Below, piece by piece: positions 17,259 to 64,000 of a stretch of 64,000 bases of DNA. Both the position numbers and the translations under genes were made by a program. The DNA is from Chrysomallon squamiferum (taxonomy: Eukaryota > Animalia > Mollusca). Under the pieces are notes generated by a model. That model was not told the origin of the DNA, ran no database searches, and was given only the letters and a program-made list of their open reading frames with translations. Position 1 is the stretch's first letter. Each line of letters opens with the position of its first letter. The DNA lies in the NCBI GenBank assembly GCA_012295275.1, contig CM022665.1, positions 11,656,001 through 11,720,000 on the forward strand, given 5' to 3'.

Positions 17259-19044
17259 CTATAAGGAAGAGGTCATAAAATACAGATCATTATCAACCAT
17301 GTAATCAGCTGCAGACCCATCTTTACTCATTTCATGTTCGTTCCAGTCCTTATTCACTTTGCTTGCTGGGATGTCTTCAGATGTGGTATTATTCTGAATG
17401 TTACTGTCTAGCTTCTGATCCATAACATCAGTGTTTCTGATAATATGTGTTTGTTCATCATCTCTTTGTCCTTTTATATCCTCATCTAGCATGGAATAGA
17501 TATCATTATCTATCATTTGATCCTTGTTTAATCCAACAGTGTCATTATTCTGACTGTTGATCATTTTTTGTTCTTTAAGGATAGTTGAAGATTTTTTATT
17601 TTCTGATTGTGTGTTTCTTTCAGTGCTTGGTGTGTCAGATCTGGTAAGTGGTTTCAGATCATCAACTTCATCATACAGATGTTCACATTCAGTTTCTACA
17701 TTACTGTCATCAGCCAGTTTCAGTATTGTGTCTTCACTGAGAGATCTCTTTGGTACTTCAGGTTTATTTCTTGTTTCTCCAGGAAGATTCATCATAACAG
17801 ATTTTGTCTGTTTCAGTCTGGGTTTAGGACTTTTCTTTTCATCTGCTTTGGAGTCATGTTGCAGACTGAGATTTTCTTTAGTTGAATTGGGATTTCTTAG
17901 GAAAATTATTTTGACAGATTCCTTTCTGGACAGTTGTGGAGTTATTTTTTCTTCACCTTTACTGTTTAAAGATTTGTATTCCATGTTTTCAGATTTGTCA
18001 CCAGTTTCATTTCCACATTCTGTTTCATCTTCATATCCACAGGATGAGATTGTGTCATAATCTGGTTCATTATTTTGTGGCTGGCTTGCTATATCATTCT
18101 CTTTGCTGAAATTAGTTTTATTTGATTCAGTTACCATCATCTCTGTTTCATTCTTGGTTAAATTTTCTTTAGATTTGTTTATGTTTGAGAATTTGTTAGA
18201 TTCTGATGAATTTTGAATGGTGGCTTTATCTGGATCTGATTCATTACTGCTTGCATTTTGAGAACAGTTTACATAGAGCTCTTGATCATCTTCTAGTGAC
18301 TGTATCTCTTTGAGTTGAGTTGTTTCTGTGTCTCTTTTGTCAGTGTTGTAGTTTTGATAATAGTCTTCACTGTCAGGGTTCAGTTCTTTTTCAAGATTCC
18401 TGGGAACATCAGCATCTTTTAGTTTATTTATACTCAAGTCTTTCTTCTTCAAATTAATATTTTCATTTTCAGAATCATCACTTAATGATTTCTCTCTTGT
18501 TTCTTTGTCATCACAAACTTCTTCAGCAGTTTTCTGTTTACTTATTTTCACAGAATGTTTTGAATGCTGGACTGTGTTAGCATCTGAAACCAGCATTGAC
18601 AAACCCAGATTTTTATTACTAGTATCAGAATTTGTCAGTTTGGGGCTTTTGTCCTTTACATTCTGTTCTTTTTCATTTTCTATCTTAAATTCTGTTTTAT
18701 TTTTATCAGATGTGGATTTCACTGGACTTGAATTATCCAGATCTGTTATGTCCTTATTATGCAGATTGTCTGTTGTTGTATAGTGAGGTTTCTTCTCTAG
18801 TCCTTGCATCTCTAAATCAGTATATCCCTCTGTATCTCCCTCTGTATCTATCTTCTCTGTGGGTTTAATGTCAGCAGTACAGGTTTTGCTGTCTGCTGGT
18901 GAATTAAAGGTTTTGGAGAGAACCTGGTCTTCTTTGTTTATTTCCTCATACTGAACCACAGTATCATCTAGAGTGGAAATCATGTCATTGTTTTTCAAAG
19001 CTGTTGGGTCATCTTTGGTGGATGTATGTTTTTTCTTAGAACAA

Positions 19045-19080
<36 letters not shown>

Positions 19081-22000
19081 CATTCTTTGAAAGTTTGTTA
19101 TTTTTTAAAATCTTTTTCAGAAGCATCATCTTGTATATAATTAATTCATCATTATTACTTTTTTTTTTTTTTTTTTTTTTTCTCAAACTACTGGTATAAA
19201 TAGTGGTTGTTTCTTTCAAGTTTTTGATAAAATGTCTTCTATTTTTCTGTCAATATATCCCAAAATAAGGGTAACAATATCATGATCTATTAGCACTTTC
19301 ATAACTTTCTTTTTGTTGTTAAACTTAAAATACAATGGTACCTGTCTTTAGTGGCCCCCGAGATGAGTGGACACCTACTGAATGCAGATATGAAATGAAC
19401 AGTCATACTGATTTGGATTTGTTTTCTCCAGAATTAATAATTATATTGTTGTATGGCAGCTTTATTTTTAAAGACGGCATCATCCATTTCCTGCACTTGT
19501 AGTGCATGTGGGGAATGTTGTTTTTGTTGAAACACAAAAGTGTGAAAACTTGTCAAACACTTGCCCACCAAAACATTTGGTACATAATTTTGATAACTCA
19601 ATAATTCGACATCATTCCATTCATATTTATATCTTATAAATACTTTGTCTTGGTGGATTTCTGAGATTGAAAAGACTGTGACACAAATTGGATCTATTTG
19701 AGTTTCAGATGCAATATTTAGTAGAGTTTTATGAGTTGCAAAGTATGTTTTATTTACATCCATGAATGAACTGGATATGTTTCACAACAGTGTTTTGGTA
19801 GAATGTCATGATGCTTGCTATGGCATTGCCCAGTCATGATGATTTATATTTGTTGTGGGGGTACTGGTGTGATGTATGTGAATAAAGATTGTATATATGT
19901 TAAAAATAAATTCTGTAATTTTTGTCCCTCTGGTAAGGGAACACCTGCAATGTAGGGACACCTGTGCTTAGCCCTACAGGTGTCCCTACAAGACATTTAC
20001 CACTGTATTACAAAATAAATGTATCACTAGGATTGATATAGTCATCACCAGATCTTCAGAAATCTTGTTAGACTTAATACTAAACTGCTAAATGACACCA
20101 TGAATATTTTGTGGGGTATTTTGTTAAAATAGTGAAGGCAACACATTAATTGTTTTAAGATAATATATTGTAACAAGGACTGATAACATTAAAAATAATA
20201 ATTAATTATTTAAAATACCTGGCTGTTATAATACACAAAAGAACTGCAATAAGTAGAAAGACAGCACCAATACAAATTAGAAGTAATCCAATTAATATTG
20301 CTGAAATAAAATGAGAAAAACAATGAAATTTTCTAAATATATATCAGTTCAATGTATGATTGATTTGATTTCAATACATTTAATATTAATTACTATTAGA
20401 TGTCAGATATTCATTGTTGTTAGTGTGAATATATATGTTTCATATATAGGTATGTTTATATGTGTTATTTGTGTAAGAATATGAATATTATATGTAATGT
20501 GATGTGTATGTATTATATATGTAATGTGTATATGTAAGTATGTAAGTGTGTGTGCATGTAATACAAAAGAACATCTAGCATTCTTTTATCTGATGAATAA
20601 ACTTACCATTTGGGAAATTTTCATCTTCATTTTGTTTATTATTTACTGTGTTTGTCATGATAGCGGAGTTGTTGGAGATACCTGTTGTAACTGACTCATG
20701 AGATTCAGATGATTTATTATTTCTTTCTGCTGCAGCAACTGTGAAATACTCTGGTCGAGATGTTGAGTTAGTGCAGGTTGTGTTTATAATTCCTTTACCT
20801 GAAATTATACATGTATTGTAGATATATAGATATATAGATAAATAGATAAAATAACAAATCATACATGTTTGCGTGCATACTTGCTTATGCAGTCTTCATA
20901 TTTTGGAAAGTGGGGTTGAAATGTAAATAATTTTAAGTTTTGAATGGAGCCTTTTACAAACAAAAATTATATTTCTTATTACTGATGACAGTTTTCATAT
21001 TGCTTTGTTTACTATTTTCCTTCTGAGATATTTAACCAAAACATAAAATAATTAACAAATAAGAGAGAGAGAGAGACAGAGAGATCAAAACAAAATAAAC
21101 TTAGTAACTTGTATCTTAGGAACAGCTGGTATGAAATTAAAATTATCAAAAAAACTATCTGATCATAGATGATTTATATCCTTTATATTTTGTCTTACCC
21201 TGCAGTGTAAGATAAATATTCATGTAAGATGATATATTCTCGTAAATTCCAAATTCGATCATAGTGGTGAGGTTAATCCAGCAGCTTTCTGGTGATGTCA
21301 CATTTGGTGAGTTTATCACAAGACAGTCTGGTCCAAGTGGATCATTGTAAACCTCCATCAGATCAATCATCTTATGGCTTTGAGTTGCATTTTCTTCATT
21401 TGAATTTGTTCCGTTTATAAAGATATGGGTTTCAGTATCCCTGTCAGATTGGGAATTAGACATCATGATTCGTTTTATTGACAGTGTAAATGACTGACTG
21501 GAGTGGACTGAGCAGTAACAGAAGTTTGGTCCAGTGTTGTTGTGGTATAGATATACTTGAGCAGAGGAGTCTTTACCATTACAGATTTGTATGCTGGCTG
21601 GTTCACCTGAAAGTGTTCATATTGTTCTTATTTTGGACTAGATATAGAAACTAATTCAGTTAAGAATTTTACATTGATATATATATATATATATATATGG
21701 TCACACACAAATAAAAGTGTATGTACATCTGTGTGTGTGTGTGTGTGTTATATAGAAAGAGATATTTACAAACATACACATATTTATATAAACATATACA
21801 TAATCCTACATACATCTGTGTACCTCTCTAAAAAGTAATAACTTTATTCTGTGAGACTTGTGTGATTTTAAAGCTTATTTAAATAACTAAAACTCAAAAA
21901 ATGTCACCGTATGTCCTTTTTATGATAGTGGATCACATACATATGCATACATACATACACCAATACACAGTAATAAAATATATAAAAAAAGAAGAAGAAG

Positions 22001-22097
22001 AAATGAATAAATGATATTTACATTTATATGTGTTTATGTAAGAGGAAAAAATGCTTAGAGTAAGTGTATGTATGTGAGAGAAAGAGAAAGGGGATAT

Positions 22098-22161
<64 letters not shown>

Positions 22162-22190
22162 ATATGACAGAGAGAAGAGAAAGGGGATAT

Positions 22191-22243
<53 letters not shown>

Positions 22244-22657
22244 AGGGGAGAGAGAGAGAGAAAGGGAGAGAGAGAGAGAAAGAGGGATATGAGAGAGAGA
22301 GAGAGAGATAAAGAGAAGGGATATGACAGAGAGAGAAAGAGAAAGGGGATATGAGAGAGAGAGGGGATATGACAGAGAGAGAGAACGAACACTGTAGAGT
22401 ACTGGGTGCAGCCAACTGAAAATGAGCTAGTGTATAACTATGCCATTATTAGTGAATAAATATTTCTGGATCAAAAAACAGTTATCTCTGTATTTAATTT
22501 AATACTTCACAGTAAAAATAAATCTGAAGTAAATCTTTTATCTGATTGAGGAAATGGATTATACTTTAATTATGGCTGTCTTAATACTAAAATACATTGC
22601 ATGTTTCTGTCGGATTTAATTTTTTAACACAAAAGTATAGAAGCAGTTGGACATTAC

Positions 22658-22688
<31 letters not shown>

Positions 22689-23628
22689 CTTGTTATTACT
22701 GTTATTATTTATACACACCTTTAATTACTGACAATGAGAAAAGGTTGCTGAAATATTCATATATCTAGCAACATTAGTATGTATTTATATAATTTATTTT
22801 TGTATACATTTTTAATAGTAATTTAAAAAATGTATAATCTGATATAACTTACACACTGATTTAAAAAGTATATATATATAAAAAATACATTCTGTTATAT
22901 AATACAGAAAAATCTTCTAATAAAACATTACTTAATAAACTTTAGTACACATTTAAACATCATGAAACTATCCTATAATTATTTTTTTGGTAAAGATTAA
23001 TTTAAAATGTTATTAGTTTGTGAGTGTGTAAAATTCTCAATTTTATATGATAGAAGAGTTAATGCTAAATAATAATAATCATAGTAGTAATAGTAATAAT
23101 TAAAAAAAAACACAATGGGGGGGGAAAAGTTAAAAAAAAGAAAAAGGTCCATTTAATGATAATTTTAAGATTTCTTTCAGTACAGGCCTGTCATTGTTAT
23201 CCAGTATAAATATTGTATCTGACAGCATGTTTGTTTTTATGGATAAGCCTCTATATATTATTGGATCAAATGCCTTATTGGATATAATGAATCATAGGAT
23301 TGATCCTTTTCAAGGTACATTAGGGTCTATTTCCTATTCCAGTAACATGTTTATCAAAAAACATAAGTGAATATGTCCATGAAAAGGTGCTTATAAATGG
23401 TATCTTTCTGCCACTCAGTAAGAATAACCCATGGATAAGTAACACTGGATTTCTTTTCTCTTATGTCATTATTTAACCAAAATTCAAAGTTCAGTATCTT
23501 AATAATGTATTAAAATGTTGTGAAGTAACACTTAACAAGCATTCATTAATTCAACTACTATACTTACCAAATGCAGAACAAATATGGAGAAAAATAAATC
23601 CAGAAAAACAAAACAGTTTAAAATTCAT
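17259..23628 (-). CDS. Receptor A: signal peptide + CUB-like domain + S/T stalk + TM + ~595-aa acidic Tyr-motif tail (no lectin exon). Exons 23628-23568, 21606-21199, 20798-20607, 20300-20219, ~19050-17259
   Basis: Signal exon MNFKLFCFSGFIFLHICSAF|G with a GTAAG donor. Phase-1/1 exons of 408 and 192 nt. TM exon AILIGLLLICIGAVFLLIAVLLCIITAR. The 579-aa ORF ends DYMVDNDLYFMTSSL. The last acceptor lies in a poly-T/poly-A junction (~19046-19080), and I see no AG in the required phase there. Confidence 0.8.
19333..20005. mobile_element. Tc1/mariner-pogo-type non-autonomous DNA element in the last intron of receptor A
   Basis: Imperfect TIRs TA|CAATGGTACCTGTCTT ... AGACATTTACCACTG|TA, with internal GGACACCT subrepeats. 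The internal minus ORF contains HSPHALQVQEMDDAVFKNK, weakly like the pogo DDE_1 motif HLLQPLD..VF..LK. Confidence 0.55.
22075..22385. repeat. Compound (GA)n microsatellite with recurring GGGGATATGACA spacers
   Basis: Seen directly; it generates spurious ER/SL ORFs. Confidence 0.95.
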
Positions 23629-25084: not shown

Positions 25085-26482
25085 CTACTACAATCTGGAC
25101 AGTACAGATTTTGATGTGGTGAACAAATTCCTGTCTACTTTAGTGGAGAAATCTCTGATAGAATTGGAAACCTCGCAATGTATTCAAGTTGGAGAAGTAA
25201 GTTTTTATCTACTTACATTATTAAGTTTGATTAAACATTGATTATTTACACACACACACACACACACATAGAGATGAATACACACTTAGCCACAGACATC
25301 AGGATTAGGAAAAACGTATGACTAAAGCATTTACATTTGTGCTGCTTTTTTGAAATTTATAAAATAATAATAATGATAATAATAAAAATCAAACATAAAA
25401 AAGAAATAAAAAAATGCATGTATTTAAAAAAAAAAAAAATTAAAACTTACCTGCATGAATAATTCCACCTTGAATATTATTTTGTAAAGTGTAAATATTT
25501 TGAAATGTTTCTAGGACAACAGGAGTGTGTCACCTCAGACTCTGGGTAGGATATCTTCCTACTACTACCTCAATCACATGACCATGCGGATGTTCTGTGA
25601 GGATCTCAAACCTGACTCCAACATTGAAGATCTCATCAAAATTCTCTCTGTATGTGGTTTCCTTTAAAAATAAAACACACACACACACACACACACACAC
25701 TCACTCACACTCTTGCTCTTTTTCACACTTGCTCTATCTCTCTCTTTCTCTCACTTTCCCTCTCTTTCTCTCTCTCTCTTCCCTCATCACATTGTAATAT
25801 AAGCTTGTAACTTTTGCACTGTTTCAAATTATATCATTCAGAATATTGATACATTTCAGAATGCTCATGAGTATGATGAACTTCCAGTGAGACATAATGA
25901 GGACCATATCAACAGGTGAATCACTTAGCTTTTTATCCATTGTTACACTGTTTTGTTCTCTCTTTTTTTAAATAATCACTTTTATTAAAATGAATATTTT
26001 TTATAATATTATGCTTACTCTATTTCAACACACTAATATTTATTTGAAAATTTATTGTTTTACAGTGAACTTGCTCAGAAGCTGTCACTAAACCTGTTTG
26101 CATACGATTCATCACATACAAAGACCCAGATTCTGTTACATGCACATTTCAGTCAGACACAGCTTCCTTCCACCGACTACTACACTGACACCAAGTCTGT
26201 ACTTGACCAGGCAATACGAATAATTCAGGTATTGAAATAAAAATTTAGGTTTTTCTTACAGAGCACAGGTTTGGCAACCTACAGAATGTGCTGGTAGTTT
26301 GTGATCTTAAAAAACCCATCCATTTTAAGTAATATTTTGTTCCCTTCACCAATACAATTTTATGTTTAAATAATGATAGTAATTGTACTAATAGTAGTAG
26401 AGTATAGTTGTTGTTGTAACAGTAGTGGTAGTAGTAGTAGTAGTAGTAGTAGTAGCAGTAGCAGTAGTAATAGTAATAGTGA

Positions 26483-26528
<46 letters not shown>

Positions 26529-29500
26529 CATAGTAGTAGTAGTAAGTTTGACATACATTGATCATAGGTAAGAAAGGGCCTTCATTTCTGAACTGTTTCC
26601 ACACTAAATAAGTCTCCAACATACCATATTGAATTTTGAGGAGTAGATATTCTAGTTCAGGTAGACATATGTTTACACTTTGACCATTTATGTTGTCTAA
26701 TATCAAATTACTGATCTGAAATACTCAATCATTTCATTGTTTGACCAAATGTACTAATCACTTTACATCTGAAAAATTTCTGAAATTATGTTTATTTTAT
26801 CCAGGCAATGCTGGATGTGTCCGCAGACCAGGGCTGGCTGGTGACAACACTCAGAGTCATCATGCTCATACAGATGGTTGTTCAGGCTAGATGGATTCAT
26901 GATTCCTCACTGCTGATTCTGCCTCACATCATGCCTTACCATCTACACTGCTTCAGGTAAATTGTAGTTTCATGGTATAGAGGTATATATGATTTTTACA
27001 TTTTTCCCACATTCTTCATCCTGCCCCCTGATAAAACATATCATTTCAACTTCAGTGGTCTTAACACTACATGGTTCAGCATTATTGTTCATTCCTGATT
27101 CTGATATGGCTTCTCATTTCTCACAATCCATACCATCTCTATGGCTTTAAGTATATTATATTTCTCTCTGTATACATATTTATATTATTCCTTGTTACTG
27201 ACTCCATCATGATTCTTCATTCCTCATCCTATCTCATGTTAAACTGTATCATCTTCATTTCTCAGTGGCTGCATTTGTCATCACTGCTGATTATACTTCA
27301 TGTGCCTTTCTATCATTTCTGTTGCCTTATTATACTCTCTTCTCTACCAATTGTTAATGATTGGTTTTTCTACCTGTGATTATGTATGATGTTGCCAAAA
27401 ATTAAATATTTTCTAATGTTATTATGAGATCAATGGCTACAGGTTCCTTGCTGTTGATCCTTATGTGATTCCTTGCTTTAATATTGATTCTTACACAGTT
27501 ACTTATTTTTTATTCTTATATGATCCATCAAGTTAGTTTTTACATGATTTCGTGCTATTTATTCATGTGATTCCTAACCAGTGATTCTAACATAATTCCT
27601 TAATATTGATTTTTATATCATCATTGTTCTTTCATGATTCCTTTGATGATTCCTCATTGATTCTATTTCATTTTTAGAACTATCATTTCCATTAATGAAT
27701 TAAATTATTGTGACAAATATGATTTCTAAGTGTTATTTTTGCCATTTCCACACTGTGTTTAAGAACTTTATCAAATAAATTCACAATGCTGCTATTACAG
27801 TAACAATGCAAATATGATTTTGAATGTACTTAGACATTTCATTAATAATTGTAATGTAAATCTACTTCAGGCCACAGAGTAGAGGTGGTGCCAGAAAAAA
27901 AGGAACTCCAGATTTGCCTGTTCCCATAGAAACTCTGCCACAGCTTGTGGCAACGTGTGATGGCAATTTTAGACTTCTGTCAGCCATGTTAGATGGTGAA
28001 ATGAGTCCAGCACATATTGACCAGGTCAGTTTGGATTGGAGAAGATGAAAGTACACTGAGTTTTTCACTAACATATTTATTATAACTTGTGTCAGAGTAA
28101 ACTGTTGTTTCTTATAGATGAATGATAATTTCAGTCCATAAACTAAAGCATTTATTTAAATGTGTGGCATAAAAAATTACATATGCTTGAAAATAAAATA
28201 AAATAAAAATCATAATATCTAAAATCTATGAGCCTTCATAAAAACCCACAAAGCTTACATCAACAGCAGCAACCAAACATTTCCATTAATATGTAAAAAA
28301 TACATATTTATACAGTAAATATTAACAAATGATTGTTTATAAATGAACATTTCTAATAGAATGAGAGACAAAGAGAGAGAAACAGAAAAGTGGCAGAGAT
28401 GTGGTAGAAATGCTTACAATTCATTTTAAAACACCCATGCACACACAACATAGTAATTTTACAGTAACAACAAGACTTAAATAAAAGAAAATAAACAAAA
28501 CCAGACTAGATATTTTCAGTGTCATTATAATTTCATTTTATTAATTGTGTATTTTGTCTTTGTAGTTGTACCAGACAGTATGTCGACTGCCTCAGATTGA
28601 AGTGACCATATCCATCAAAGGTTGGTGGACTGAAGAAGGTGGTCAGGAGGATGAAAAACCAGTGGCTATTAACTACAGAGGTGCTATTATTAATTATAAT
28701 ATATTCTTTTTACAGAGGTGCTATTATTAATTATAATATATTCTTTTTACATGATTTTTCATTAATTAGAATTTCCATGTATATGTTTCTGATAATTCAT
28801 AAGGATGTAGATATGTGGATATATATGTGTTAGTGTATATAACCTGTTTTTAAAACTATTTCATTACATTCAGATCTATATAGACTAAATACCAGAAGAG
28901 ATTTTAAAAGTGTATTTAGGTTTAATTATTTCTTAGTTCACTTTTACATTTTCCACACTTAAATTTAGTCATTCAGTTAACTGATCTAAACAGGTTTTAC
29001 TTTCCCTCTCTTGGTGTGCTGATTATCTACTTGTGTTGTTTTTGTTCACTGTACTGTAGTGTTGTAATTCTCACAGGTGGCCGCCGTCCAGACACTGACT
29101 GGATACCTGTAAATGCTGACCAGGAGTATGTGTTGAAAATAGTTCTAACCAGAATTAACAAAACTAAGGTGAGTATTTACAATAAAAGTGTCAGGACACA
29201 GAAAAATCTTCTCGTTTCTTTTTTGCAACATTTGCTGTCTTATAATTTACCATGATTTTCTAAAATACTGATGTTAATTTTTTTTTTATTATTGTCTTTC
29301 ATGTAAACTTATTATTATATAAATTATTTGGCATTTTGTTCAGGTTTGCTATGAATTTTATGTGGTAGTCATGCTAGCAGACTGTAAATCTAATAACATG
29401 AAGCAGACGACCTGTCATGATATGAGCTAAACTGATTTTCTGTTCAAAAAGAAATAACTGTAATGTAAAATGACTTGCAGACACTGTATATATACTTTAT

Positions 29501-30076
29501 AAAGGGTAAACATACATTATTTTATTTAGACCAAATACACATGATTTATAAATGGTAAATATATATAAATATGTACCTGGTGAATATAAGTAATTTATAC
29601 AGGTAAATGTATATATTTTATGTAGTGAAATTGTACACAATTTAAACATGGTGCTTGCATTAATGTTATACAGCTGTTAAATATAAACACTACATTTTGT
29701 TACATTAAATACATATAATTTAAATATGCATTATTATTTTCCTTTTCAACAGAAATATGACAGCAAAGCCTACACACCTCGATTCCCTAAACCTAAGGAT
29801 GAGGGCTGGATAATTGTTGTTGGTGACATAGAAAACAAAGAGGTAATTGCTCTGAAACGTGTGGGATATGTTCGAGGTCGGACAACAGTTCAGATGGCAC
29901 TGTACACACCAGAAACTGTGGGGCGTGTGATATACACACTGTATTTCATGAGTGATGCATACCTCGGTTTAGATCAGCAGTATGATCTGTGTCTGGATGT
30001 GATTCCTGAAAGTATTGAGGCACAAGTGAATACAGAAGTGAAAGATCAACTGGAAAATCTTCAACTTCAAGACTGA
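25085..30076 (+). CDS. ASCC3: Activating signal cointegrator 1 complex subunit 3 (Ski2-like helicase), last 9 coding exons (C-terminal winged-helix/Sec63 region): 25085-25196, 25515-25649, 25860-25915, 26066-26228, 26805-26956, 27871-28024, 28566-28680, 29077-29168, 29753-30076
   Basis: The exons have AG/GT boundaries and join in frame to give SYYNLDSTDFDVVNKFLSTLVEKSLIELE...GRISSYYYL...EYDELPVRHNED...DYYTDTKSVLDQAIRIIQAMLDVSADQGWL...ADQEYVL...TPRFPKPKDEGW...YTLYFMSDAYLGLDQQYDL...AQVNTEV. This closely matches the vertebrate ASCC3 C-terminus as I recall it. The 5' part of the gene lies outside the window. Confidence 0.95.
26390..26545. repeat. (AGT)n microsatellite. Other simple repeats: (CT)n 3036-3102, (CA)n 24186-24243, (GA)n 43775-43840, (GT)n 44832-44868, (AAT)n 56826-56885, (GA)n 61398-61484
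   Basis: Seen directly. Confidence 0.95.
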
Positions 30077-35400: not shown

Positions 35401-36486
35401 GATATTGTTAACTATACTTAACAATTAACACAGTCATAATTCACTTGAGCTGCAGTAACATTACATCCTTGAAAGTTATAAATTAAAAATTCTTGTTGAC
35501 ACTGTGTTTTTCCGTTGCAAGTAACATATGTTTTCCAGTTTATGCGTGTACAGTTTAATTCAGTTATCTGTGTACAGTTTTATCTGTCTGTTTTCCTCCT
35601 CTAACATCCTTGATCTGTATCACTGAACCAACATCACACACAAGATTAAGTGTGACAAAATTATTCTTAAAACAACCTGATGATGTCATCATGTAACCTG
35701 AAAATTAAATTCTTGAATATTTTGAATTCTAAGTATAAAGTTTTCGCAGACAGCAGCTTATTTTAGTTTGATGAAATTTAATTTCGAATTAAATTTACAG
35801 CAAACTATCAGAGTATGTTAGAAATGAGAAATGGTATTTATCGTGGTGTGAACATAATTTTAGCCTAAATATATTTTAAATTTTTCTATATGCTTCTGAA
35901 TAATAATAAAGTATCACTATAAAATAGAAATCTTATATGAAGATTGATATTTTGTACATAGAATTGCAAAAATATCTTTAGATTGAAGATATTAAATCAA
36001 GTTTTGTATGCATGGATTTTATGTATTTTCTTTTCAGTGTTTGAAAATCATGCAAGGGACAAGCAAAATGGTTGTCATAAAACATTTAACAAGTGGTCAT
36101 TATAAGCAGGTAGCTGTCACAGAGAGGTAGCCACATTAGAAGAAGTAACTTTGTGCAGCATTTGATATTACTTAACATATACAGCTAGATCCATGAAACA
36201 AAATAAAAAACATATGTCAACAGTTTAAACATATCTTATGCCTCCACTGTTTGATATCAACAAATGTTCAAGGAACAAAAACTGCAAAATAAAATAAGAA
36301 AACATATGTCAGCAGTTAATATTTTATTTTATATGAAATAACATAATATATGTCAACTGTTAACAACATATTTAATACATCTAGTATTTAATATTACTTA
36401 CCAAATGCTGAAGGAGCAAAATCCATGAAATAAATTAAGACAGTACATGTCAGTAGTTTATGATTGTATCCACAGATACCCTCCAT
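32430..36486 (-). pseudogene. Receptor B, disrupted paralog. Exons: signal 36486-36402, lectin-like 35697-35423, CUB-like 35102-34716, stalk 34052-~33705, TM 33231-33145, tail 32749-~32430
   Basis: Same exon plan as E. The lectin exon is 275 nt vs 276 in E (1-nt deletion at ~35579). The stalk has three in-frame TAA codons, the TM is frameshifted by a (GT)n expansion, and the tail has in-frame stops. The CUB exon is intact (ORF 34690-35145). Confidence 0.8.
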
Positions 36487-47351: not shown

Positions 47352-48137
47352 TTAAATATGAACAGACAACTTTTCATAGACATCATTTGATGTTCTAGAT
47401 GAAGGATTCAAATGTTCGTATTCATTTTGTCCAGAATTAACAGAATTTCTCTCTCTCGTAGAATCTTGACCATTTGAAGACGTCAGATCGTTCTGGTTTG
47501 TTTCAGCTTGTTCAACAGGATTTGAAAAATTGACGTAACTATTTTGCTGAGACTTTTCTCTAACGTGAAAGTTGTTATTTAATTGATGATTGACTTCACT
47601 GATTTCGGAATTTAATTGTTGTTGGTTGTTTGAAGATGCGTGATCATTTTGGTTAGCAATATCTTCATAGTGATTAACAAAGTGGTTATCTTGAGAATGT
47701 TGAGTTGTACGAGAACTGTGTGCAATCTGTGCAACTTGACCATTGTTTCCTACATCATCTAGTTTGTAGACTCCATCACTCGTCATTGTGTTTTGGTTTG
47801 TTTGTGTAGGATTAGTGGCAGACATTTCTTGATTGTTAGATTTTGTCTTTCTGTTGTGTCTCCTGAGATGCCTGTAAGATATTGAAAATGTATATAAATT
47901 TATATATCAGAATAGAAACACATTGTTGATATATAAATAAATAAATAAATAAATAAAATATTTTTTTAAAAATATAACATAAAATAAGGAGAAAAATAAA
48001 AGAAAATACTCTAAAGCAAAAGACATCAAGAATTACAAAAAAACAAGCAAAGAAACCTTTCTATACTGACATTATTAATTTTGAGATACAATTTGATTTG
48101 TTTGCCTTACTAACAAAAATATACACATAGACGGACT

Positions 48138-51100: not shown

Positions 51101-51812
51101 TATGGGTGCAGTTGTAAAAGTTATTCTTACTTTGATGGAAAGTGGGTTGAGAGATGGTTGCCATGATCATGTAATTGGGATTGAGAATAACTTAATAGTT
51201 CCTAGAGGTAAGGTTTCAGGTGGGAAATGGTGGCAAGTTCACATTTTGTAACTTTTTCAGTTCTTATCTGAATATCCCAAAATCCGGAAAACTGTGTTCT
51301 GTGAAATCGAGGGTCACAATACAAATATTTGCTACCTACAGATCGACCTACATACATTCACAAACAGATGCACATACATATATATATATGCAGGATACAC
51401 ATATACGCATTCACACGCACACACTGAAACCATATAGACAGACAGAGAGATGAATGGATAGGACTATAATGAGAAAAATAGATATTGACTGCTAGAGAAA
51501 TGATTAGATACGTACAAATAGATATACAGTCAGAGAGATATTTAGATGACAGTTACATAAATATATAGACATACAAACAGATAGAAAGATAGATATAAAG
51601 ACAGATGGTTTGCTAGACACGCAGACAGATACACAGACATATTTACTGAATGGATGTTTCTTAGTAATAACAGAAATCTCAGTAGTATGTACGGTTTACC
51701 ACTTATGAATAAAAACCAAAATGAACCCACCTTGTTTTGTATCCAAGTAAAATGTGTATACGATAAAACATAACAGTATCGAGCAACGTGAAGAAATTCT
51801 TGTTTCTGCCAT
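47352..51812 (-). CDS. Receptor D, apparently intact: signal 51812-51731, lectin-like 50883-50584, CUB-like 49947-49616, stalk 49423-49039, TM 48601-48514, tail 47871-47352
   Basis: Signal MAETRISSRCSILLCFIVYTFYLDTKQ|G. Ectodomain exons are nearly identical to C. TM VTALSVLTAVLFLLLVTVSSILFW followed by basic HLRRHNRK. The N/Q-rich tail ends NEYEHLNPSSRTSNDVYEKLSVHI. The ORF is open if the CAA|GTAAG donor at 49616 is used. Confidence 0.85.
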
Positions 51813-53811
51813 TCTACCATCTGACAGAAAGTTGTTAGTTGATCAGCTAAGATAAATTCTCAGTCTTTTGTTAAATATAAAAGTCACACTACGTGTTAAA
51901 AATACAGCGATCTTGTAAAGCAGGAAGATATTTAGAAACGTAAGTACAGCGTTCATCAAAAGGCTTTACAAATAATAATGTAGACACAGATTTCTTTTTT
52001 ATGCACTAATTTTGTATGTGTGTCATTATTAATGTGTGTGCGTGTTTGTATAATTATGAATGTTTTTGAGTATAACACGGTTATATTCATAATACAAGAT
52101 CGTTGTATTATACTTTTTTATTACATAATTTCCTGTGTTAAACTGGAAAGTTTAATTAATCACGTTTTATTTAAATGTACTGTTATTGAAATTAAAATTC
52201 TTTCGTAGACCGTCATCAGATGTTTTATGAAGACAGCATATTTATTTATTTTACGATCTTAATTTTCTTTTTTTTTTATGTTCATTTTATGTTCTTTAAA
52301 TTTAAAAAATAATAATAATTATTTTCGCCTTCATGAAAAGCATATTTTAGTTTGTGGAATTTTTTTGCTTGTGAAGTAATTTACAAAAGCTAATATGAGT
52401 AAATACTTCTATGAATTTACATTCTTTCAATAAATAAAGTAAAACTCTGTTTTGTACTCCGAATAGCCAAGTCTGACAAACCGTCAACAATAAAATCTTC
52501 TTCTTCTTCATGCATGAGTGATAAACTGGAACGAACAATAAGTAAAATGCTTGTATAAAATCATCCAGGCTTGACGGATGGATGTAAAATTTGCTTTGTG
52601 AGTTCATTAATTGTATGTAATATACCAAGACATCCGTGTGCAAATTTAGACTGTGCACCATTCACTCCTACGTACACAAACACACTCTTACACACATCAG
52701 TATACTTCATTTCATATTAAAGGTTTGGGAAGAATAAAAAATTAATCACTTGTTTTCATTAATGATTAAATGATTAATTTGATTTAATTTAAGCATATGT
52801 ACTACGGTTGTATTATATTAACACTTAGGTTGATAAAATTCGTTGATATTAGTACCTCAAATTATAAAAATAATAATAGCAATAACAATAATATATAAAA
52901 AAAAAATAATAGTAATAATAACAGTAACAACAACAACAACAACAGCAATACTAAAAATAATAATAGTATATTACACACTATAATGTTCGACAATAATATC
53001 ATATTATTAAATGGGTTAGTAATAATAATATATCACACATAAACCTCTCTAAAAATAATATATGACGCATAAAACGCGCCAGTAAATAATATCACATATT
53101 GTTATTAAAAGTCACTAACTAAAGTATACAACATATCAAACAGGTGATCACATTGTGTACTGCTACTAACAATAACCTATCTAAGAATAACTCATTACAT
53201 AATGATTATAAAAATATTCAAGACATATCTAGGAATAATAAAATATCTTTAAAAATTCACGAATTTCTAAATTATATAATTTTATTATCATTTTTTCTTT
53301 CTTTCTTTTGGAAGCATTCTATAATTAAAATACGTATAACACACTCATACACGCACAAACACAGACACACACGCGCGCGCGCGCTCGCAGACACACATTT
53401 AGAATATAAAAATGTATTCAGGAGGATAGGTCATTTTAAGGAAGATATAATTTATTTAGAAAGTGTTTCCTCCCAACCCCAGCAACTTGTATCTAGGATT
53501 AACAGATTACGTATAATAATGTTATTCTGGAAATGTATACTTTACAATGTCATCTATAAATATTATAACATATTATAAATATTTATAGAAAACGGATTTT
53601 CGAACATGTACATGACTAACAGAGACGTTTTCCAACATCTAGGACATCAGAATGAAATATTACAAGAAAAACATTTAAAGCAACATTTTTAGGACTAACA
53701 AATCAAAATAAATAATTAAATAAATAAATAAAATTTTTAAAATAACGAATATATTGAAGATTACTCTATGTTAGATTATAAAGAAATTTTCAGAAACACA
53801 GACGAAAAAGA

Positions 53812-56800
53812 TCACATGTAATATAGTTCATTATCTTCCATAAAACAGCCAGGCTTGCAGGAGTCTTGACTGTCTTCTTCTGCTACAAGTTTAGCATGTT
53901 TACTCTTGGGCAATGTGCTTTCATAAACGTCCTTGTCTTTCACGAGTGCACCTGGAAGACATAGAGGAGGCTCGGACGCTGGTCTGCCGATGGCGTCAGC
54001 TGGTACAGAGTACGGATGCTCGTCCTCGGAGTCTTGTTTCTCTCGTTTAGAATTTTTCAGAGAGTCTAAAGGCAGCATGTAAGGAACGCTGTCCCTTGAC
54101 TCCACTGGCTGTTGTATCGAATTACCGACTGGTTTATTCTTACCAGACTCTGCAAGAATGGTATCAGGAGACTGTTCCTTGTTGGTGTTTTTTCTGGAAT
54201 TACCATCATTACCAGCCGTTCTATTTAGACTGTGTTCATTTGTATTCTTATCTGAAATAAAGCCAATCATTCTGTAGTATAAATCTGGTTTATTTTCTTT
54301 CGTGTTTGCTGCTTCGGTTACTTTTCTTTGTTGTGATTAGAATTATCGCAACTCTCATCCATCTGAAAACATTTATTGTCATACTCCATGTCAGTGGTTT
54401 TCTTTTCCAAGTATTCCTTTCTCTTAAATCTTCTTCTGCAATAAAATATAAAAAATATCTCACTGAAAGTAAAATCAAATATGTATAATCAAGTCAAATC
54501 ATAAAAACACCAGTTCGATAAAAATATTGGTATGGACTACATCTCTTTCGGAAATCGACTGATAACAAGCAAACAGCATTATTAATTAATAAGAATATAT
54601 GCAAAGTACTGGTTGATCATAAACTCACCTGATAACAAAAACACCTGTAATTGCTGCACCAACGAGCAGTATTCCCAAAATCGTTGATATCACTATTATT
54701 ATAACTGTGGTTCTCTTGTTTTCTGAAGAAAAAAATATTAAAAAATCCAGATCTTAGATGTGTTTAAATATTCTATTGATTTTTCTAATTTCATTATTAT
54801 TGTTATTATTTCTGTTATTGTTATTGTTATTGCTATTATTATTATTGTTGTTATTATTAGTATTAAATTACATTTATAAGACCATGTACGTAGTAGCAAT
54901 AAAGCACGCACAGACATGCATATTAAGACATGTAATAATAATTTGTACTAATATTCACCTATGCTTTCTAAATCTTTTAAATTTTCATTTCGTGGCGAGG
55001 TAACTGTTGACGTGAACGTTGATGGTGACGAGGCACCTGTTGATAAAGATGCTGAATTCAAATGTGACACTGTAGCTGTTGATGTTGTCAGTATATTCAT
55101 GTCTGATATATTGCCATTGCATTCAAGACTTATTTGACTGCTGTTTGCTGTAATAGAAAGAAATAAGAAAAACTGCGTTTGAGCAAATTTGTTAAGGTAA
55201 TGAACAATAATAAAAATTCATGAATTATATATTTATAAAACTATTAGTCTTTGCAAACAATAAAGTATAAAAGCAAATTTACGGGACGATATTAGGAGGT
55301 AAACATTTAAAAAATAATTTATGATGTTAGTACGTACTCTTCACAATGTGAAACAAAAATCATTATAGTTTCCCTATCCTTAGTCTATCACGACTTTTTT
55401 TTCATAAGACCAAAAGTTGACTGTAGAAAATGACAGAATGAAACTGAAATAATACATGCATATTAAAAATACATTTGACATACCCTTTATCTCCATCCAT
55501 ACATTCTGTTGAGACTGATTCTTGTTGTTGTAAAATATCTGAACTCTTTTTTGTGACTGAGCAATAATTAGGTTTTTCTTTTGTAAAAGACAGTTTTCAG
55601 TTGGACACGGTTCCACAACATCTCTTTCTGAATCCCATAAAACTGTTGTAGAATTCACTACAGTGAAATCTGCAGCTTGTGTATAATTATCTTCGTACGA
55701 AAAGTCTAAACTGAGTATTTGAAATGCCATTAAATCGCTACTTGCTGTTAATAGGCACGTACATTTGTTATATGACGCATTTGACTTTGGGAATCCAGGG
55801 CTTTTCAAATGCAACATTGAATCTGTTTTTTGATATTCGTTAGCACAGATGTCAAAAGTATTAGAATCTGAAATATAAAATATTATAAAATATTATCAGT
55901 TATCTTGTTGGAAGAGAAAATTCTTACTTCAAGAAGACAAATGCAAAATCTTAATTTCCAGTCACATAATACAAAGTACTGTATATATACTTTATAGAAA
56001 ATACGTATAATCAGCAGTTAAATAAAAGTCACTGATTCTAGACACTGACACATCCAGCCAAACATCAGATACAGAAACTGATGACATGAATACCTGATGA
56101 CATGAATACCTGTCATACCCATTTCCAAACATCAAGATGCAATGCAAAGTCACAGAAAGATACCCATCAAGTCCATTTGAATCAAGCAGAACGAATGGTG
56201 AACAGAAGAGAACATATCTTATTTACCAAGTAAATAGAAGACAATGTTACTGTTCACATTCTAAAAGAAGTTGAAATATTCCTGGCGTATGACTGAATGC
56301 AGTAGCAATGAGCTTTACTTAGTAACCATCAAGAGTGGCATTCTGAACAGAAAACTTTGTCGCAACCAGTTTGAAGTATTCGACTGATGATTTCTGCTCC
56401 CAATTTATTTAATTTGCCTTGTGTGTTAATTCACCCCAGATTCAGAAACATTGTGATGCATGGTGCTCTAAAGGTATTGACGGTATTTGTATATCATAAT
56501 TATTGACTCAAAAGTGTATTGCTGAATTACTGAACTATTATTATTATTATTATTTTTGTTGCTGTTGTTGTTATTATTATATGATATGGATGACGAACAA
56601 TTAGTTATATTATATTGTATTCAGTTTACAAAAAAATAAATAATAAAAATAAATAAATAAATAAATTATAATAAAAAAAATTATATAAATAAATAAATAA
56701 ATAAACAAATAATCAAAAAATTAAAATTGAAATAAAATAAATTAAAAAATTAAAAAATTAAAATTAGAAATAGAAAAAACAATAAAAATTCGACTACTGC

Positions 56801-56882: not shown

Positions 56883-57273
56883 TAATATTCATAATAATTT
56901 AATTACATTAATATATATTTAAAATTACCTAGATAAATCATAGAAGTGAGATCTTACCTTTGACACAGTCATATTTCACTTGAGCTGCAGTAACATTACA
57001 ACCTTGAAAGTGATAAATTACAAATTCTTGTTGACACTGTGTTTTTCCGTTGCATGTAACATACGTTTTCCAGTTTATGCGTGTACAGTTTAATTTAGTT
57101 ATCTGTGTACAGTTGTTATCTGTCTGTGTTCCTCCTACAACATCCTTGATCTGTATCACTGAACCAACAACACACACAAGATTAAATGTGACAAAATTAT
57201 TCTTAAAACAACCTGATGAAGTCTTTTGCTCACCTAAACAATGAAAAAACACCATGATAATATCAAATTACGC

Positions 57274-57321
<48 letters not shown>

Positions 57322-58625
57322 GCGTAATTTGTTTTTTTACGTATTACTGATAAGCTATTAATAATTTATGTAAAGCGACTGAGATAGACGTTTTGAACAA
57401 CAAATTCAGTCGTAATTTATCTAGATTATTATTATTATTATTATTATTTTTAAATAAAATAACATACACAGCGCTTAACTTGCAGTGTGCAATAATTGTA
57501 TCTGGGCAGCAACAAGATAATATATTACTGTAACGTCTTATAACTGTTTACAGAATGGCCATTTTTGTATTGTCAAAATTAGTTTCTAGATCAGATAAAG
57601 TAGTTTTTGTATTAGGACTGTGATGGTAGTGCTCAGTTACTCTGATGGTTACTGTAGTAGTGTTGGAGATGGCAGAAGTAGTTTTCGTTATTATTACATG
57701 TTAACGGTATCAGGAATCATAATTATAATAAGGTATGGTCAGGTGCGGTGAAGCGTATAACTGTTAAAAGGTAAACACTTTAGCTGACATATTTTTGTAA
57801 CAGTTTAGTAACAACTTGACGAAGTCTTCATGTAACCTGAAAATTAAAATTTTGAATATTTTGAATTGTAAGTATAACGTTTTCAAAGACAGCAGCTTAT
57901 TTTAGTTTGATGAAATTTAATTTCAAATTAAATTTACAGCAAACTATCGGAGTATGTTAGGAATTAGAAAATGTATTTATGGTGGAGTGAACATAATTTT
58001 AGCCTAAATATATTTTAAATGTTTTGGTGTGCTTCTGAATAATAATAAAGTATCACTATAAAATAGAAATCGTGAATGAAGATTGATATTTGGTACATAG
58101 AAATGCAAAAATATCTTTAGATTGAAGATATTAAATCAAGTTTTGTATGCATGGATTTTATGTATTTTCTTTTCAGTGTTTGAAAATCATGCAAGGGACA
58201 AACAAAATGGTTGTCATAAAACATTTAACAGGTGGTCATTATAAGCAGGTAGCTGTCATAGAGAGGTAGCCACATTAGCAGAAGTGACTTTACACAGCAT
58301 TTGATATTACTTAACATATACAGCTAGATCCATGAAACAAAATAAAAAACATATGTCAACAGTTTAAACACATTTTATGCCTCCACTATTTGATATCAAC
58401 AAAGGTTCAAGGAACAAAAACTGCAAAATAAAATAAGAAAACATATGTCAGCAGTTAATATTTTATTTTATATGAAATAACATAATATATGTTAACTGTT
58501 AACAACATATTTAATACATCTAGTATTTAATATTACTTACCAAATGTTGAAGGAGCAAAATCCATGAAATAAATTAAGACAGTACATGTCAGTAGTTTAT
58601 GATTGTATCCACAGATACCCTCCAT
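53812..58625 (-). CDS. Receptor E: B-type signal exon 58625-58541, lectin-like 57233-56958, CUB-like 55867-55484, stalk 55147-54959, TM 54722-54629, tail 54435-53812 (1-nt frameshift at ~54322)
   Basis: 8-Cys lectin-like exon of 276 nt. CUB-like exon DICAN...LKSPGFP...CTC...VWMEIKG. TM VIIIVISTILGILLVGAAITGVFVI followed by RRRFKRK. The tail ends CFMEDNELYYM. One A is missing in GAA-AA-GTA relative to an open frame. Use of this signal exon is uncertain. Confidence 0.75.
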
Positions 58626-60350: not shown

Positions 60351-60390
60351 TCATGAAAAGTCACAAAGAGTCTGTGAAAATACTGATTTT

Positions 60391-60935
60391 TAATACATCT
60401 AGTATTTGATATTACTTACCAAATGTTGAAGGAACAAAATCCATGAAATAAATTAAAATGTTTAAAATATTTTAGATTACTTGTTTGCTTTGTGATACCC
60501 TAACTCTTGTTTTTGTGAGTACAAATTCTTCCTGGTTATGAATGTATCTAGAAAAAAGCCTGAAAAATCTGTCTGTGTAAAGAAGACAACTCTGACAGGC
60601 TGACCTATTAAAATATATAATACATGATTTGTGTATGCTGTGTATTTCTGTTAATATTAACAGGACTGCATATACAGAAAAATGTATTCACACACATTCA
60701 AATACATGCATACTGATTTGTGTGTGTCTGTGCATGTGTGTAGGTGTGTGTGTGTGTGTGGTGTGTGTGTGTGTGTGTATGGTGTGTATGTATTTTCGTG
60801 TTTTGATGTATATGTGTGTGTATGTGGATGTGTTTGTGATTATGTGGCAGTAATTATTTTAAAAAGACATCCTCCTTCTGTAGAATGGTAGGTACACAAC
60901 ATATATGTCATAGTCATAGATATGAAATCATTTAT
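60391..60935 (-). pseudogene. Third, internally deleted copy of the B-type promoter and signal exon
   Basis: Matches 36372-36940 and 58511-59095. It keeps the TTTG|GTAAG donor at ~60419 but lacks the ATG-containing ~50 nt (junction aattaa/aatgtttaaa at ~60455). Confidence 0.7.
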
Positions 60936-60961: not shown

Positions 60962-61005
<44 letters not shown>

Positions 61006-61415
61006 TACACCCACGTATATATATATGTGCATGTGTATGCAAGTACCAATTTTAAAATTGAGAGCTTTTAAAATAATTAAATGAATAAATAAATAAAATA
61101 AATAACTAAATGGTAAGTAAGTAAATAAAATAAAATAAAATAAAACAAATACAAATTAAAATAAATAAATAAATAAACTCTGCCAGAACATTAGATAATC
61201 AAACTACAGAAACAAGAACAATGAAAATAATAAATTGCATCAAGCAGTACAAACAAGAACAACACTAAAAAAAAGTTTTAAGATGTAAAAAAGAAACTTT
61301 TCTACAAAGAGTCTGTGAAAATACTGATTAATAAAAATGTGAATTTAAACAACATGTAATGAAAATAACAACAAACAAGTACAACAAAAGTGACAGTTAT
61401 AATCTAAAGCACGTT

Positions 61416-61487
<72 letters not shown>

Positions 61488-61979: not shown

Positions 61980-63385
61980 TCAGACATCTGAAAAGTTTGA
62001 CATTTGTTCCTGTGGGATAATTAGCTGGTTATCACTCTGATAGTAAATATCATTAACTTTCATTTCATCATCTGGAACACATTTTGATTCTTGTTCTATA
62101 CCATTATCACTCTGATAGTAAATATCATTAACTTTCATTTCATCATCTGGAACACATTTTGGTTCTTGTTCTGTACCATTATCACTCTGATAGTCAATAT
62201 CATCGTCTTTGGTACAATAAACTTGATTGATGTCCATCAGTTTGTCAGGGACACAATTTTCAGAGTGCTCTGCAGTAAAATTGTCCTGTCCAGATGGTTC
62301 CATCTCCTCCAGGTTTATTTCGGTGTAGTTGCTGAAACGTTTGTCTAGTTCTGGGATTTCACAGTATAAGTTGCTGGATTCTTTGGGTTCAGGTTCATGA
62401 TGCGATTTGAAATTATTTTTCTTTATCCTGAAACAAACAGAAACAAACCACTTAATATTATTATTTATTTATTTATTTATTTTTTGGATTTGTTGTCCAT
62501 ATTGACAGTAGAAAGATCCTACATTCAAAGTATACAGAAATGAGGTCCAAGTTTGTTAAATTGAATTAATTTAACTTTGTGTATTTGTCTATTTTCCACA
62601 TAGGATTATGAATTAAATTCAGTGGACTTTAGATTATGTTATGAAAATATAAAGAAAAACATTATAATACTGAATTAATAGTAAAAAAGAAGAATTTTTT
62701 TTAAATATTAATAATAGATCTATAACATAATAGTAACAAATCAACTTAATAATAATAATAAAAAGAAGAAGAGGAAGAGGAAAAACAACAAAGCAACAAG
62801 AGCTACAGTAGCAACAACAACAACAGCAAAAAGAAGATGAACACAAAAAGATTAGATGCAAATTTTAAAGAACATTCAATTTCCTCATTTGTTATATAAT
62901 CAATCATCTACCTAACATTTATTTTTCAAATTCTTTTCCTCGACATTTCTACAAAAAAACAAGAACAAAAAATGTACTCTGATTAAGGATTTAAGAAAAG
63001 GATCATTTTTGAATGTATGTGTCCTTACTGTTTAGGTTTTAATCATAATGTATTACATGACAGTGCACACTAACGTGATTATTATATACATACCTGTAAA
63101 GATAACATACTCCTATTACAACTGTTGCAATAAACAAAACAACACCTACGACAGCAATAGGTATTATGATTATCTTGATATCGGTATCTGAAAATATAAA
63201 GCTATCTCTATAACATTAACAAAAAATATAATCTTAGTAATACCTCAGAATACTTTAGTATTAACTTGTATTTGAAAATAGAAGCCTTGTGTATTCACCA
63301 CTATTGAGTCCCTTAGAAAGAGGTTTATAAATACATGTATATGAGTGTTTGTCTGTGTGTCTCTATGTCTGTCTATCTTTCAAAT

Positions 63386-63420
<35 letters not shown>

Positions 63421-64000
63421 GTATATATGGTTGTATACATATATACTTACATATATGTGTGTGTGTGTTTATGTATGTGTCTATATATGTATGTAATTGA
63501 CTACTACTATTAATAATTCTAATATACAAGTGAATATTCTGTTGTACTGAACAATAAACAAATATGTATAACATTACAATTAAAATACAACATAACAACA
63601 ACAACAAAAAAGATACCTTCTTTCCCATTAAGTGCTGAGTAGTTGCTGAAAACTGAGGTACTGACATTGTTCAGCAGTTTTGTAGTGAAGAATGATGATG
63701 AAGTACTGTTATTATTCAGTTTTGTAGTGTCTAATGGTGATGAAGTACTGTTAATACTCAGTTTTGTAGTGTCTAATGGTGATGAAGTACTGTTATTATT
63801 CAGTTTTGTAGTGTCCAATGATGATGAAGTACTGTTAATATTCAGTTTTGTAGTGTCTAATAATGATGAAGTACTGTTAATACTCAGTTTTGCAGTGTTT
63901 GATGATAATGTGCTGCTGATAAACATGGTCACTGATGTTGATTGTGTTATTGTGGTTGAAGCTGTTGTCTGGTTCTTGCTGTGAGAAACTTCAGTAGACA
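61980..64000 (-). CDS. Receptor F, 3' part (C-type): stalk >64000-63617, TM 63187-63094, tail 62427-61980 with 2 NDIYY repeats
   Basis: Near-identical to C in stalk, TM, tail and the intervening introns. The visible stalk ORF is open. The gene continues beyond the window end. Confidence 0.85.
63690..63905 (-). repeat. Coding 42-bp stalk repeat, 5 units (DTTKLNINSTSSSL-like)
   Basis: Seen directly in ORF 63519-63932. A disrupted version lies at ~41340-41530 and a single unit at ~49110-49160. Confidence 0.9.

Follow-up and report, generated by a model that had tools for sequence, protein, structure and literature searches.

A snail gene cluster with SUEL-CUB ectodomains over two types of tyrosine tail is a candidate paired-receptor system

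The window analysed here, a stretch of 64,000 nucleotides (nt) from the snail Chrysomallon squamiferum (contig CM022665.1), contains six gene models, A to F, all co-oriented on the minus strand within 17259-64000 and with GT-AG intron borders. Most encode a predicted SUEL-type lectin-fold domain, a CUB-like domain, a stalk, one transmembrane (TM) segment and a tyrosine-bearing tail. From the sequence patterns we lean, with modest conviction, toward reading the cluster as a paired activating and dampening recognition system, in which gene conversion would keep the ectodomains alike over two unrelated tail types. Ectodomains kept similar by conversion and different TM segments and tails were found together in one cluster, the combination by which paired receptors are recognised. 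The ligand would probably be fast-changing and non-self, and an immune, symbiont or allorecognition role is a candidate function.

The gene models follow a plan of one exon per domain, with extracellular exons mostly of phase 1-1 and a phase 2 intron after the TM. Genes B to E have signal-peptide, lectin, CUB, stalk, TM and tail exons, and the visible part of F comprises stalk, TM and tail. The first-pass annotation had described six co-oriented genes of this kind; the six models, their borders and their phases agree with it, but gene A proved to be a look-alike without a lectin exon. Two ectodomain classes, as also proposed there, were recovered. D and C are identical at 88/99 amino acids (aa) of the lectin and 105/112 of the CUB domain, E and B at 85/121 of the CUB domain, and identity between the classes is 19-30%; the visible part of F resembles C. 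The TM exons and tails of D versus C and of E versus B align no better than shuffled sequences. For example, the TM exon of D (48514-48601) is unrelated to that of C (40717-40810), with 4/18 matches and 140 of 200 shuffles scoring as well. A mosaic of at least four tail classes had been suggested; the mosaic itself stands, but alignment gives weak backing to the proposed class uniting D and B (2 of 200 shuffles, for one of 21 tail pairs compared).

The signal-peptide (51731-51812), SUEL-fold (50584-50883), CUB (49616-49947) and mucin stalk (49039-49423) exons of D correspond to 43887-43968, 43149-43472, 42144-42482 and 41272-41796 in C. A tract at 48900-50950 of D spans the lectin, CUB and stalk exons together with introns; 100-nt windows within it are 85-100% identical to C, bar one at 72%, and the flanks are 40-72% identical. 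The synonymous divergence (dS) is 0.083 for the lectin exon, 0.036 for the CUB exon and 0.95 for the signal-peptide exon, which lies outside the tract and retains 14/27 identical residues. Because introns are shared (94% for intron 2) and dS is 0.04-0.08 inside the tract against 0.95 outside it, the nucleotide comparison identifies the tract as a product of conversion or block replacement, not of selection. Six of the 11 lectin changes between D and C fall in D residues 38-47.

E and B share the signal-peptide exon (27 of E's 28 aa), intron 1, the lectin exon (249/263 nt) and the 3′ half of the CUB exon (five differences in 177 nt). The 5′ half of the CUB exon is not homogenised (dS 1.3; ratio of nonsynonymous to synonymous divergence, dN/dS, 0.37), and the conversion breakpoint lies near 55660. 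The exons of E are at 58541-58625 (signal peptide), 56958-57233 (SUEL fold), 55484-55867 (CUB), 54959-55147 (Ser/Thr stalk), 54629-54722 (TM) and 53812-54435 (tail). Those of B, at 32467-36486, are in the same order 36402-36486, 35423-35697, 34716-35102, 33851-34052, 33141-33231 and 32467-32749. In addition, the block formed by the 3′ part of C and the 5′ part of B is duplicated as the 3′ part of F and the 5′ part of E, at 88-94% identity. The stalk exon of F (63617-64000), cut by the window edge, has an open frame and a local identity of 354/357 nt to the stalk of C; its TM exon (63094-63187) has no charged residue, and its tail is at 61980-62427. In gene E, a degenerate start of a B-type lectin exon was noticed at 57836-57240, about 600 nt upstream of the working acceptor, with an AAT-rich inverted repeat at 57264-57331 between the two.

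Tyrosines in the tails are followed by a hydrophobic residue at +3 in 14 of 38 cases, against 6.0 expected (4/5000 shuffles), and position -1 is likewise enriched (4/5000 shuffles). The motif [MY]xxNx[LIV]Y occurs twice in A, once in E, 14 times in C and three times in F, where 0.006-0.028 copies per tail would be expected by chance, and is absent from D and B. The minus strand has 20 Met-led copies, all of which fall in the tails of A, E, C and F. Copies with the exact Leu are found in A, E and the abalone homologues described below, those with Ile/Val in C, F and A, and each form is far more frequent than chance predicts. The tail of C (38693-40040) carries 12 of its 14 copies in a 63/75-nt tandem array at 38753-39538, and the three copies in F include two repeat units. 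The tails of D (47352-47871) and B instead carry YVN and YEKL. In D the latter forms YEHL-x10-YEKL, a pair resembling an immunoreceptor tyrosine-based activation motif (ITAM); D also has YEDI and no motif of the phosphotyrosine-binding (PTB) type. We conclude that, by motif content, the tails are of two types, a division new here: M-x-x-N-x-[LIV]-Y (A, C, E and F) versus YVN/YxxL (B and D). Since the tails sort in this way, each ectodomain class has both types (C/F versus D, and E versus B). The ITAM-like motifs, as read from the translations, lie in the receptors' own tails rather than in an adaptor.

Homologues were found in other gastropods. A CUB profile search matched 28 proteins, including Gigantopelta proteins of both ectodomain classes and proteins of Haliotis, Physella and Owenia; 15 of the 28 are true multi-CUB proteins by Pfam, aligned over their N-terminal LxSP half. 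Among named proteins, those of Gigantopelta aegis are the nearest relatives of the receptor domains. A second search returned 44 proteins, all from four Haliotis species; within H. rufescens, H. cracherodii and H. asinina, the proteins of each species map to contigs of one length. This range is a minimum, as the best 7994 candidates were scored and the search depends on shared words; even so, the earlier description of the family as lineage-specific does not hold. No Biomphalaria protein was seen among the matches that were looked up or named, which for the CUB profile search were 13 of 28. The annelid protein Owenia P0076 has two SUEL-CUB units and a more canonical CUB sequence, and is possibly the ancestral form of the module.

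Forty-one of the 44 abalone proteins include a TM segment, and their tails, counted with isoforms included, divide into 13 with only the M-x-x-N motif and 28 with only the ITAM-like pair; none has both and none has neither. In the tree of Haliotis ectodomains, sequences group by species rather than by tail type: identity is 85-89% within species across tail types and mostly 66-82% between species within a type. At three abalone loci, RefSeq isoforms with consecutive accessions differ in TM and tail, and at two H. rufescens loci (LOC124137133 and LOC124137135) the isoforms are identical over 310 and 320 residues and then diverge at the TM exon. The paired-receptor logic put forward earlier is strengthened, because conversion tracts lie over unrelated TM segments and tails and abalones repeat the arrangement. 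Clustering by species would also suit receptors for gametes or other conspecific cells, whose ectodomains are kept species-specific by concerted evolution, and SUEL and CUB folds do occur in egg lectins and spermadhesins (SUL-I, CSL3 and a spermadhesin are among the structural matches given below). Gamete binding, however, needs neither opposed tyrosine tails nor alternative TM cassettes, and we regard a gamete role as very unlikely.

Under the paired-receptor reading, for which we infer every signalling step, clustering by ligand would lead a Src-type kinase to phosphorylate the tails. Tails with YxxL-x10-YxxL or YVN (D and B, and the ITAM classes of abalones) would then recruit Syk/Shark and Grb2 and activate the cell. 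Tails with M-x-x-N-x-[LIV]-Y (C, F, E and A, and the long class of abalones) would bring in a Dok-type PTB adaptor and RasGAP, with a dampening effect in the manner of CD200R, without immunoreceptor tyrosine-based inhibition motifs (ITIMs). Three features may set the dose of the signal: the number of repeats (12 units in C and 2 in F), the deletion that truncates the tail of E, and the presence of copies that are soluble or dead (C and B). Conversion or alternative splicing would keep both tail types on one sensor. A scan for extra TM cassettes recovered 2 of the 5 known intact TM exons and is uninformative on their absence. Short candidate exons were noticed by eye in intron 5 of C and F (about 40569-40533 and 62948-62912), after a strong pyrimidine tract and AG; they would end the protein about 10 residues past the TM, giving possible tail-less isoforms.

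Several observations weigh against this reading. The split between tail types is not clean in the window, because C and F carry both the M-x-x-N motif and an ITAM-like pair (YCEI-x9-YTEI), and B has only a single YxxL. The M-x-x-N motif was spotted in the data before it was tested. It fits what we take to be the Dok-PTB consensus, Y/M-x-x-N-x-L-pY, a consensus that we did not find in print, and the activating PTB adaptors Shc, IRS and FRS2 also recognise NxxY motifs. The strict ITIM [ILVS]xYxx[LV] is absent from all seven tail pieces in the window, where loose forms only (SNYTEI, VQYEEI and LYYRMI) were found, and none of the five TM segments in the window has a charged residue, so that no Lys or Arg is present for an ITAM adaptor; the mechanism of KIR, LILR and Siglec receptors, which the first-pass annotation had invoked, is thus not supported. 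Among the 41 abalone proteins, a strict ITIM occurs in two tails and the only charge in the TM windows is a terminal Lys in two. Many of the abalone proteins counted are isoforms from a small number of loci, and tandem arrays can yield chimeric isoform models in RefSeq. The tail of the Physella homologue P0079 has neither motif. In the window, three of six copies are broken (B, C and the window allele of E), and D and A rely on putative splice sites. The RNA evidence described below comes from one of two RNA runs at a depth of 4-5 and covers one joint of one gene. Finally, the dN/dS of 0.70 for the D/C lectin, on 18 changes, is no demonstration of positive selection.

The tail of P0079 contains a 12-residue tandem repeat of its own that lacks tyrosine (residues 507-602), and for this reason tail repeat expansion appears to recur in the family.

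With the obvious splice sites, all five complete models break. Gene D is open over 569 codons if the CUB donor lies 7 nt upstream of the site equivalent to that of C (49609); this phase-0 donor has the better consensus and compensates a one-base gain at the start of the stalk. Gene A opens over 859 codons via the second AG of its small juxtamembrane exon. Both are splice-site choices that we infer. The first stops are at codon 289 in C (in the stalk), codon 382 in E (38 aa past the TM) and codon 73 in B. The stalk of C is frameshifted in the window sequence, and its predicted product is a secreted lectin-CUB protein. Because of the stop at codon 73 and further stops, we classify B as a pseudogene on its reading frame: its lectin exon has a frameshift, its stalk a stop, its TM exon a frame break, and its tail a stop alongside the YVN and YEKL motifs. 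The earlier picture of six working genes must be revised accordingly, with B, C and the window form of E broken.

Read evidence was drawn from the contigs of four runs over 53770-54790 in gene E. RNA run X9 yielded a 306-nt contig over the TM exon of E, and its loose end consists of the last letters of the stalk exon; because of this end, the stalk-TM joint of E is taken to be spliced in frame. A second X9 contig lies on the tail of E. RNA run X8 had no contig on E and was counted as no evidence. The splicing of the exons into one transcript, assumed in the first-pass annotation, was therefore seen at one joint of one gene. The X9 tail contig differs from the window over 53846-54332 (487 nt) by five substitutions (four replacements and one silent) and an in-frame 3-nt insertion; these differences were observed in a single contig at a depth of 4.7.

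In each of the DNA runs X1 and X2, which come from two studies, there are two paths through the tail of E, one of 55 nt as in the window and one of 362 nt (depths 36 and 75; 9.2 and 8.9). The paths differ at a 5-nt microhomology at 54328-54332. By their length, the extra 307 nt would bring the C-terminal MEDNELY, in which the downstream frame terminates, back into frame. Because the window path is present in both DNA runs, the frameshift of E is a real variant (allele or paralogue), most simply a deletion. An assembly indel error, considered for all the frameshifts, was rejected for E, as the window path occurs without differences in X1 and X2, and is unlikely for B given the in-frame stops. 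A transposon insertion is a less favoured source of the 307-nt path, since the frameshift in the window would still lack an explanation, though the 5-nt repeat would fit a target duplication.

These lesions raise the possibility that the array is mostly a set of decaying duplicates in this species, with conversion and duplication arising mechanically from the tandem structure and the microsatellites, and with a tail pairing that has no function here. The broken B, C and window E allele fit such decay, as do the D/C dN/dS of 0.7-0.8, the end of the D/C tract next to a microsatellite, and a solitary copy of the first exon of E/B with its upstream region, partly deleted, at 60386-60935 on the minus strand (82-84% identical to both). 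Against it, the 5′ half of the E/B CUB exon has a dN/dS of 0.37 at dS 1.3, open frames run through the long tails of A (594 aa) and C (448 aa), gene E yields spliced RNA, and the motifs and their pairing are retained in abalones. We judge general decay quite unlikely.

The lectin exons show the eight-cysteine SUEL pattern, with eight Cys in E and nine in D. SUEL_Lectin (PF02140) matches C (E-value 2.2e-5) and D (6.5e-5), both under the gathering cut-off, and does not match E, which is recognised by the family profile at 1.7e-13; no Pfam CUB match was obtained on the window CUB exons. Other Pfam matches on tails and CUB exons (IL6, PH_NF1, MpAgo_N, XPG_I_2, Sialidase and WW_1) were treated as chance. 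A profile of the window lectins has latrophilin lectin domains as its best match (6e-4), and a weak match to a neuropilin CUB domain was also found (0.17). A search with a single lectin exon found nothing. We used an AlphaFold model of the Gigantopelta homologue P0067, whose domains are 51% and 42% identical to the exons of D (34-row alignment; mean predicted local distance difference test, pLDDT, 68.7). Its first half matches the latrophilin lectin (Z 8.2; root-mean-square deviation, rmsd, 2.9 over 86 aligned residues), SUL-I (Z 7.8) and CSL3 (Z 7.4), and its second half matches MASP-1 CUB2 (Z 9.2; rmsd 3.0 over 101 aligned residues), and CUB domains of C1s and cubilin; a spermadhesin is also among the matches. 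SUEL and CUB folds are thus predicted for B to E via this homologue, the former in agreement with the assignment made earlier from cysteine spacing. A single-sequence fold of the CUB exon of E was uninformative (pLDDT 38.8), and Foldseek on the two-domain model was not used, since generic beta-sandwich matches with rmsd >14 dominated.

The motifs YGR and DPC, described for sugar-binding rhamnose-binding lectins (RBLs) in the cited sections (PMC3269628), are absent from the window exons, which have YSN or VGG and FNC or QGC at these sites, and from all 19 homologous lectin domains. The ligand is, on these residues, probably not rhamnose or galactose, and the suggestion of a rhamnose-binding lectin is not supported in its functional sense. 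Loss of the sugar motifs would also suit developmental or neural adhesion or guidance receptors in the manner of EVA-1, latrophilin or neuropilin, in which the lectin fold binds a host protein, the NxxY tails recruit activating PTB adaptors as RET does, and the variety of tails reflects tissue-specific signalling. The latrophilin lectin as best solved-structure match, the weak neuropilin match and the age of the family, which lies beside ASCC3 in both the window and Physella, point the same way. Guidance receptors are typically single-copy and conserved, however, and here we see species-level homogenisation, changes in repeat number, pseudogenes and a segregating truncation; moreover, ITAM-like pairs are kept in 28 of the 41 abalone proteins. 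An adhesion role is, in our view, unlikely.

Gene A (17259-23628) has a signal peptide at 23568-23628, a CUB-like exon at 21199-21606, a stalk at 20607-20798, a TM at 20219-20300, a juxtamembrane exon at 19192-19238 and a tail at 17259-19045 with MIDNDIY, MVDNDLY, YEEI, YDEV and YVN. A profile of 25 family CUB domains gave no match to the domain of A up to an E-value of 10 among 2843 six-frame pieces, and found those of B to E at E<=3e-22. Pairwise scores of the A ectodomain against B to E are at shuffle level, and the domain is CUB-like by language-model features only, with low recognition. Lacking both a lectin exon and a match to the family profile, A is, as far as its sequence goes, only a look-alike of the SUEL-CUB-TM family. 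Use of the first AG of its juxtamembrane exon (19246), again judged by eye, would likewise end the protein soon after the TM and give a possible tail-less form. The intron after the TM (19300-20060, minus strand) contains broken frames resembling a transposon remnant and, by eye, a short inverted repeat near 19990-19950.

The window has a GC content of 24-33% and is rich in microsatellites. Positions 1-17000 contain no convincing coding exon on either strand by open reading frame listing and family profiles. Between genes A and B, on the plus strand, lie the final nine exons of ASCC3 (25085-30076; 1303 nt without lesions), which encode its last 433 residues and are sister to Patella in a 27-row tree (unstarred support 82/81); as a lesion control, this piece is too short to decide on assembly indel error. 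No upstream ASCC3 exon was found in window positions 1-25000. ASCC3 begins abruptly at the exon starting YYNL, as do 15 of the 18 short ASCC3-like records shown, and Biomphalaria has split ASCC3 models with six accessions between the pieces as well as a joined model of 2195 aa. The shared YYNL start and the split and joined Biomphalaria models suggest, from the gene models, a conserved giant intron holding nested genes, and gene A probably lies antisense inside it. The Physella homologue (XP_059138481) and the ASCC3 3′ piece (XP_059138482) have consecutive accessions and lie on contigs of equal length (34,039), which suggests that the linkage of the receptor family to ASCC3 is old.

How germline receptors let invertebrates weigh attack against tolerance is an open question. 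The mollusc candidate clusters (PTC and LG5R) have no clear signalling logic, and the snail family supplies a concrete, testable one. Two motif-defined tail types on a shared sensor are conserved from this relative of Gigantopelta to the abalones, where RefSeq isoform pairs exist in a farmed species. We tentatively suggest, as a possibility only, an ancient gastropod paired-receptor system tied to ASCC3, in which one SUEL-CUB sensor would be joined to one of two tails, an ITAM/Grb2 "on" tail or a multi-copy Dok-PTB "off" tail. The choice would be set by alternative TM and tail exons in abalones and by conversion between neighbours in the window, the number of tyrosine repeats and a segregating deletion in the tail would adjust the gain, and the ITIM-free inhibitory pairing would have evolved independently of CD200R. 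If the Dok link were true, inhibitory pairing free of ITIMs would have arisen a second time, independently. For a snail related to symbiont-bearing vent species, the system would be a candidate for symbiont tolerance.

We found no publication describing the SUEL-CUB-TM family in the open-access literature. The tandem-gene, conversion-homogenised layout is common to the snail cluster and to mammalian paired receptors such as Siglec-11/16, PILR, KIR and LILR, whose extracellular exons are described in the cited sections as homogenised by conversion over different signalling ends (PMC5701461, PMC2211832). The mammalian receptors differ in belonging to the immunoglobulin (Ig) superfamily and in using ITIMs and a charged TM for a DAP12-type adaptor, whereas the putative activating motif of the snail genes is in their own tails. 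CD200R1, according to the parts of the review concerned, inhibits without an ITIM through NPxY, the Dok2 PTB domain and RasGAP, and has activating relatives and soluble splice forms (PMC7915401). In contrast to the snail proteins, it has an Ig ectodomain, a single NPxY and activating partners with a TM lysine and DAP12; the snail motif is present in 1-14 repeats, has D/E/Q replacing Pro, and has a putative binding partner.

The Alr genes of Hydractinia, as described in the relevant passages, use one exon each for domain, spacer and TM, undergo exon shuffling, have tails more divergent than their ectodomains, and include ITAM-bearing tails, pseudogenes and truncated-tail forms (10.1101/2022.03.04.482883). 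They differ in their Ig and fibronectin type III domains, ITIMs and mapped allorecognition in a colonial animal, and are not homologous to the snail SUEL/CUB genes. Biomphalaria PTC1/GRC, PTC2 and LG5R are gastropod clusters of single-pass receptors for which non-self recognition is proposed in the cited portions (PMC13712769, PMC4361660); by their descriptions there, they carry EGF/Tie2, fucolectin, chitinase-like and protein tyrosine phosphatase domains, not SUEL plus CUB, and the words "CUB", "lectin" and "ASCC3" are absent from the main text of the PTC2 paper. The SUEL/RBL membrane proteins (latrophilin, EVA-1/C21orf63 and PKD1L2) share the lectin fold and the eight-cysteine pattern, as far as the cited sections go (PMC3269628), and the snail family differs from them in having a single SUEL followed by CUB, stalk and one TM, in the loss of YGR/DPC, and in forming a multigene cluster. 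Because the domains differ and neither ITIMs nor charged TM residues characterise the window genes, the cluster, which would function like paired receptors, is a member of none of the systems compared. The concept itself has invertebrate precedents, and the two-tail logic recurs across distant gastropods.

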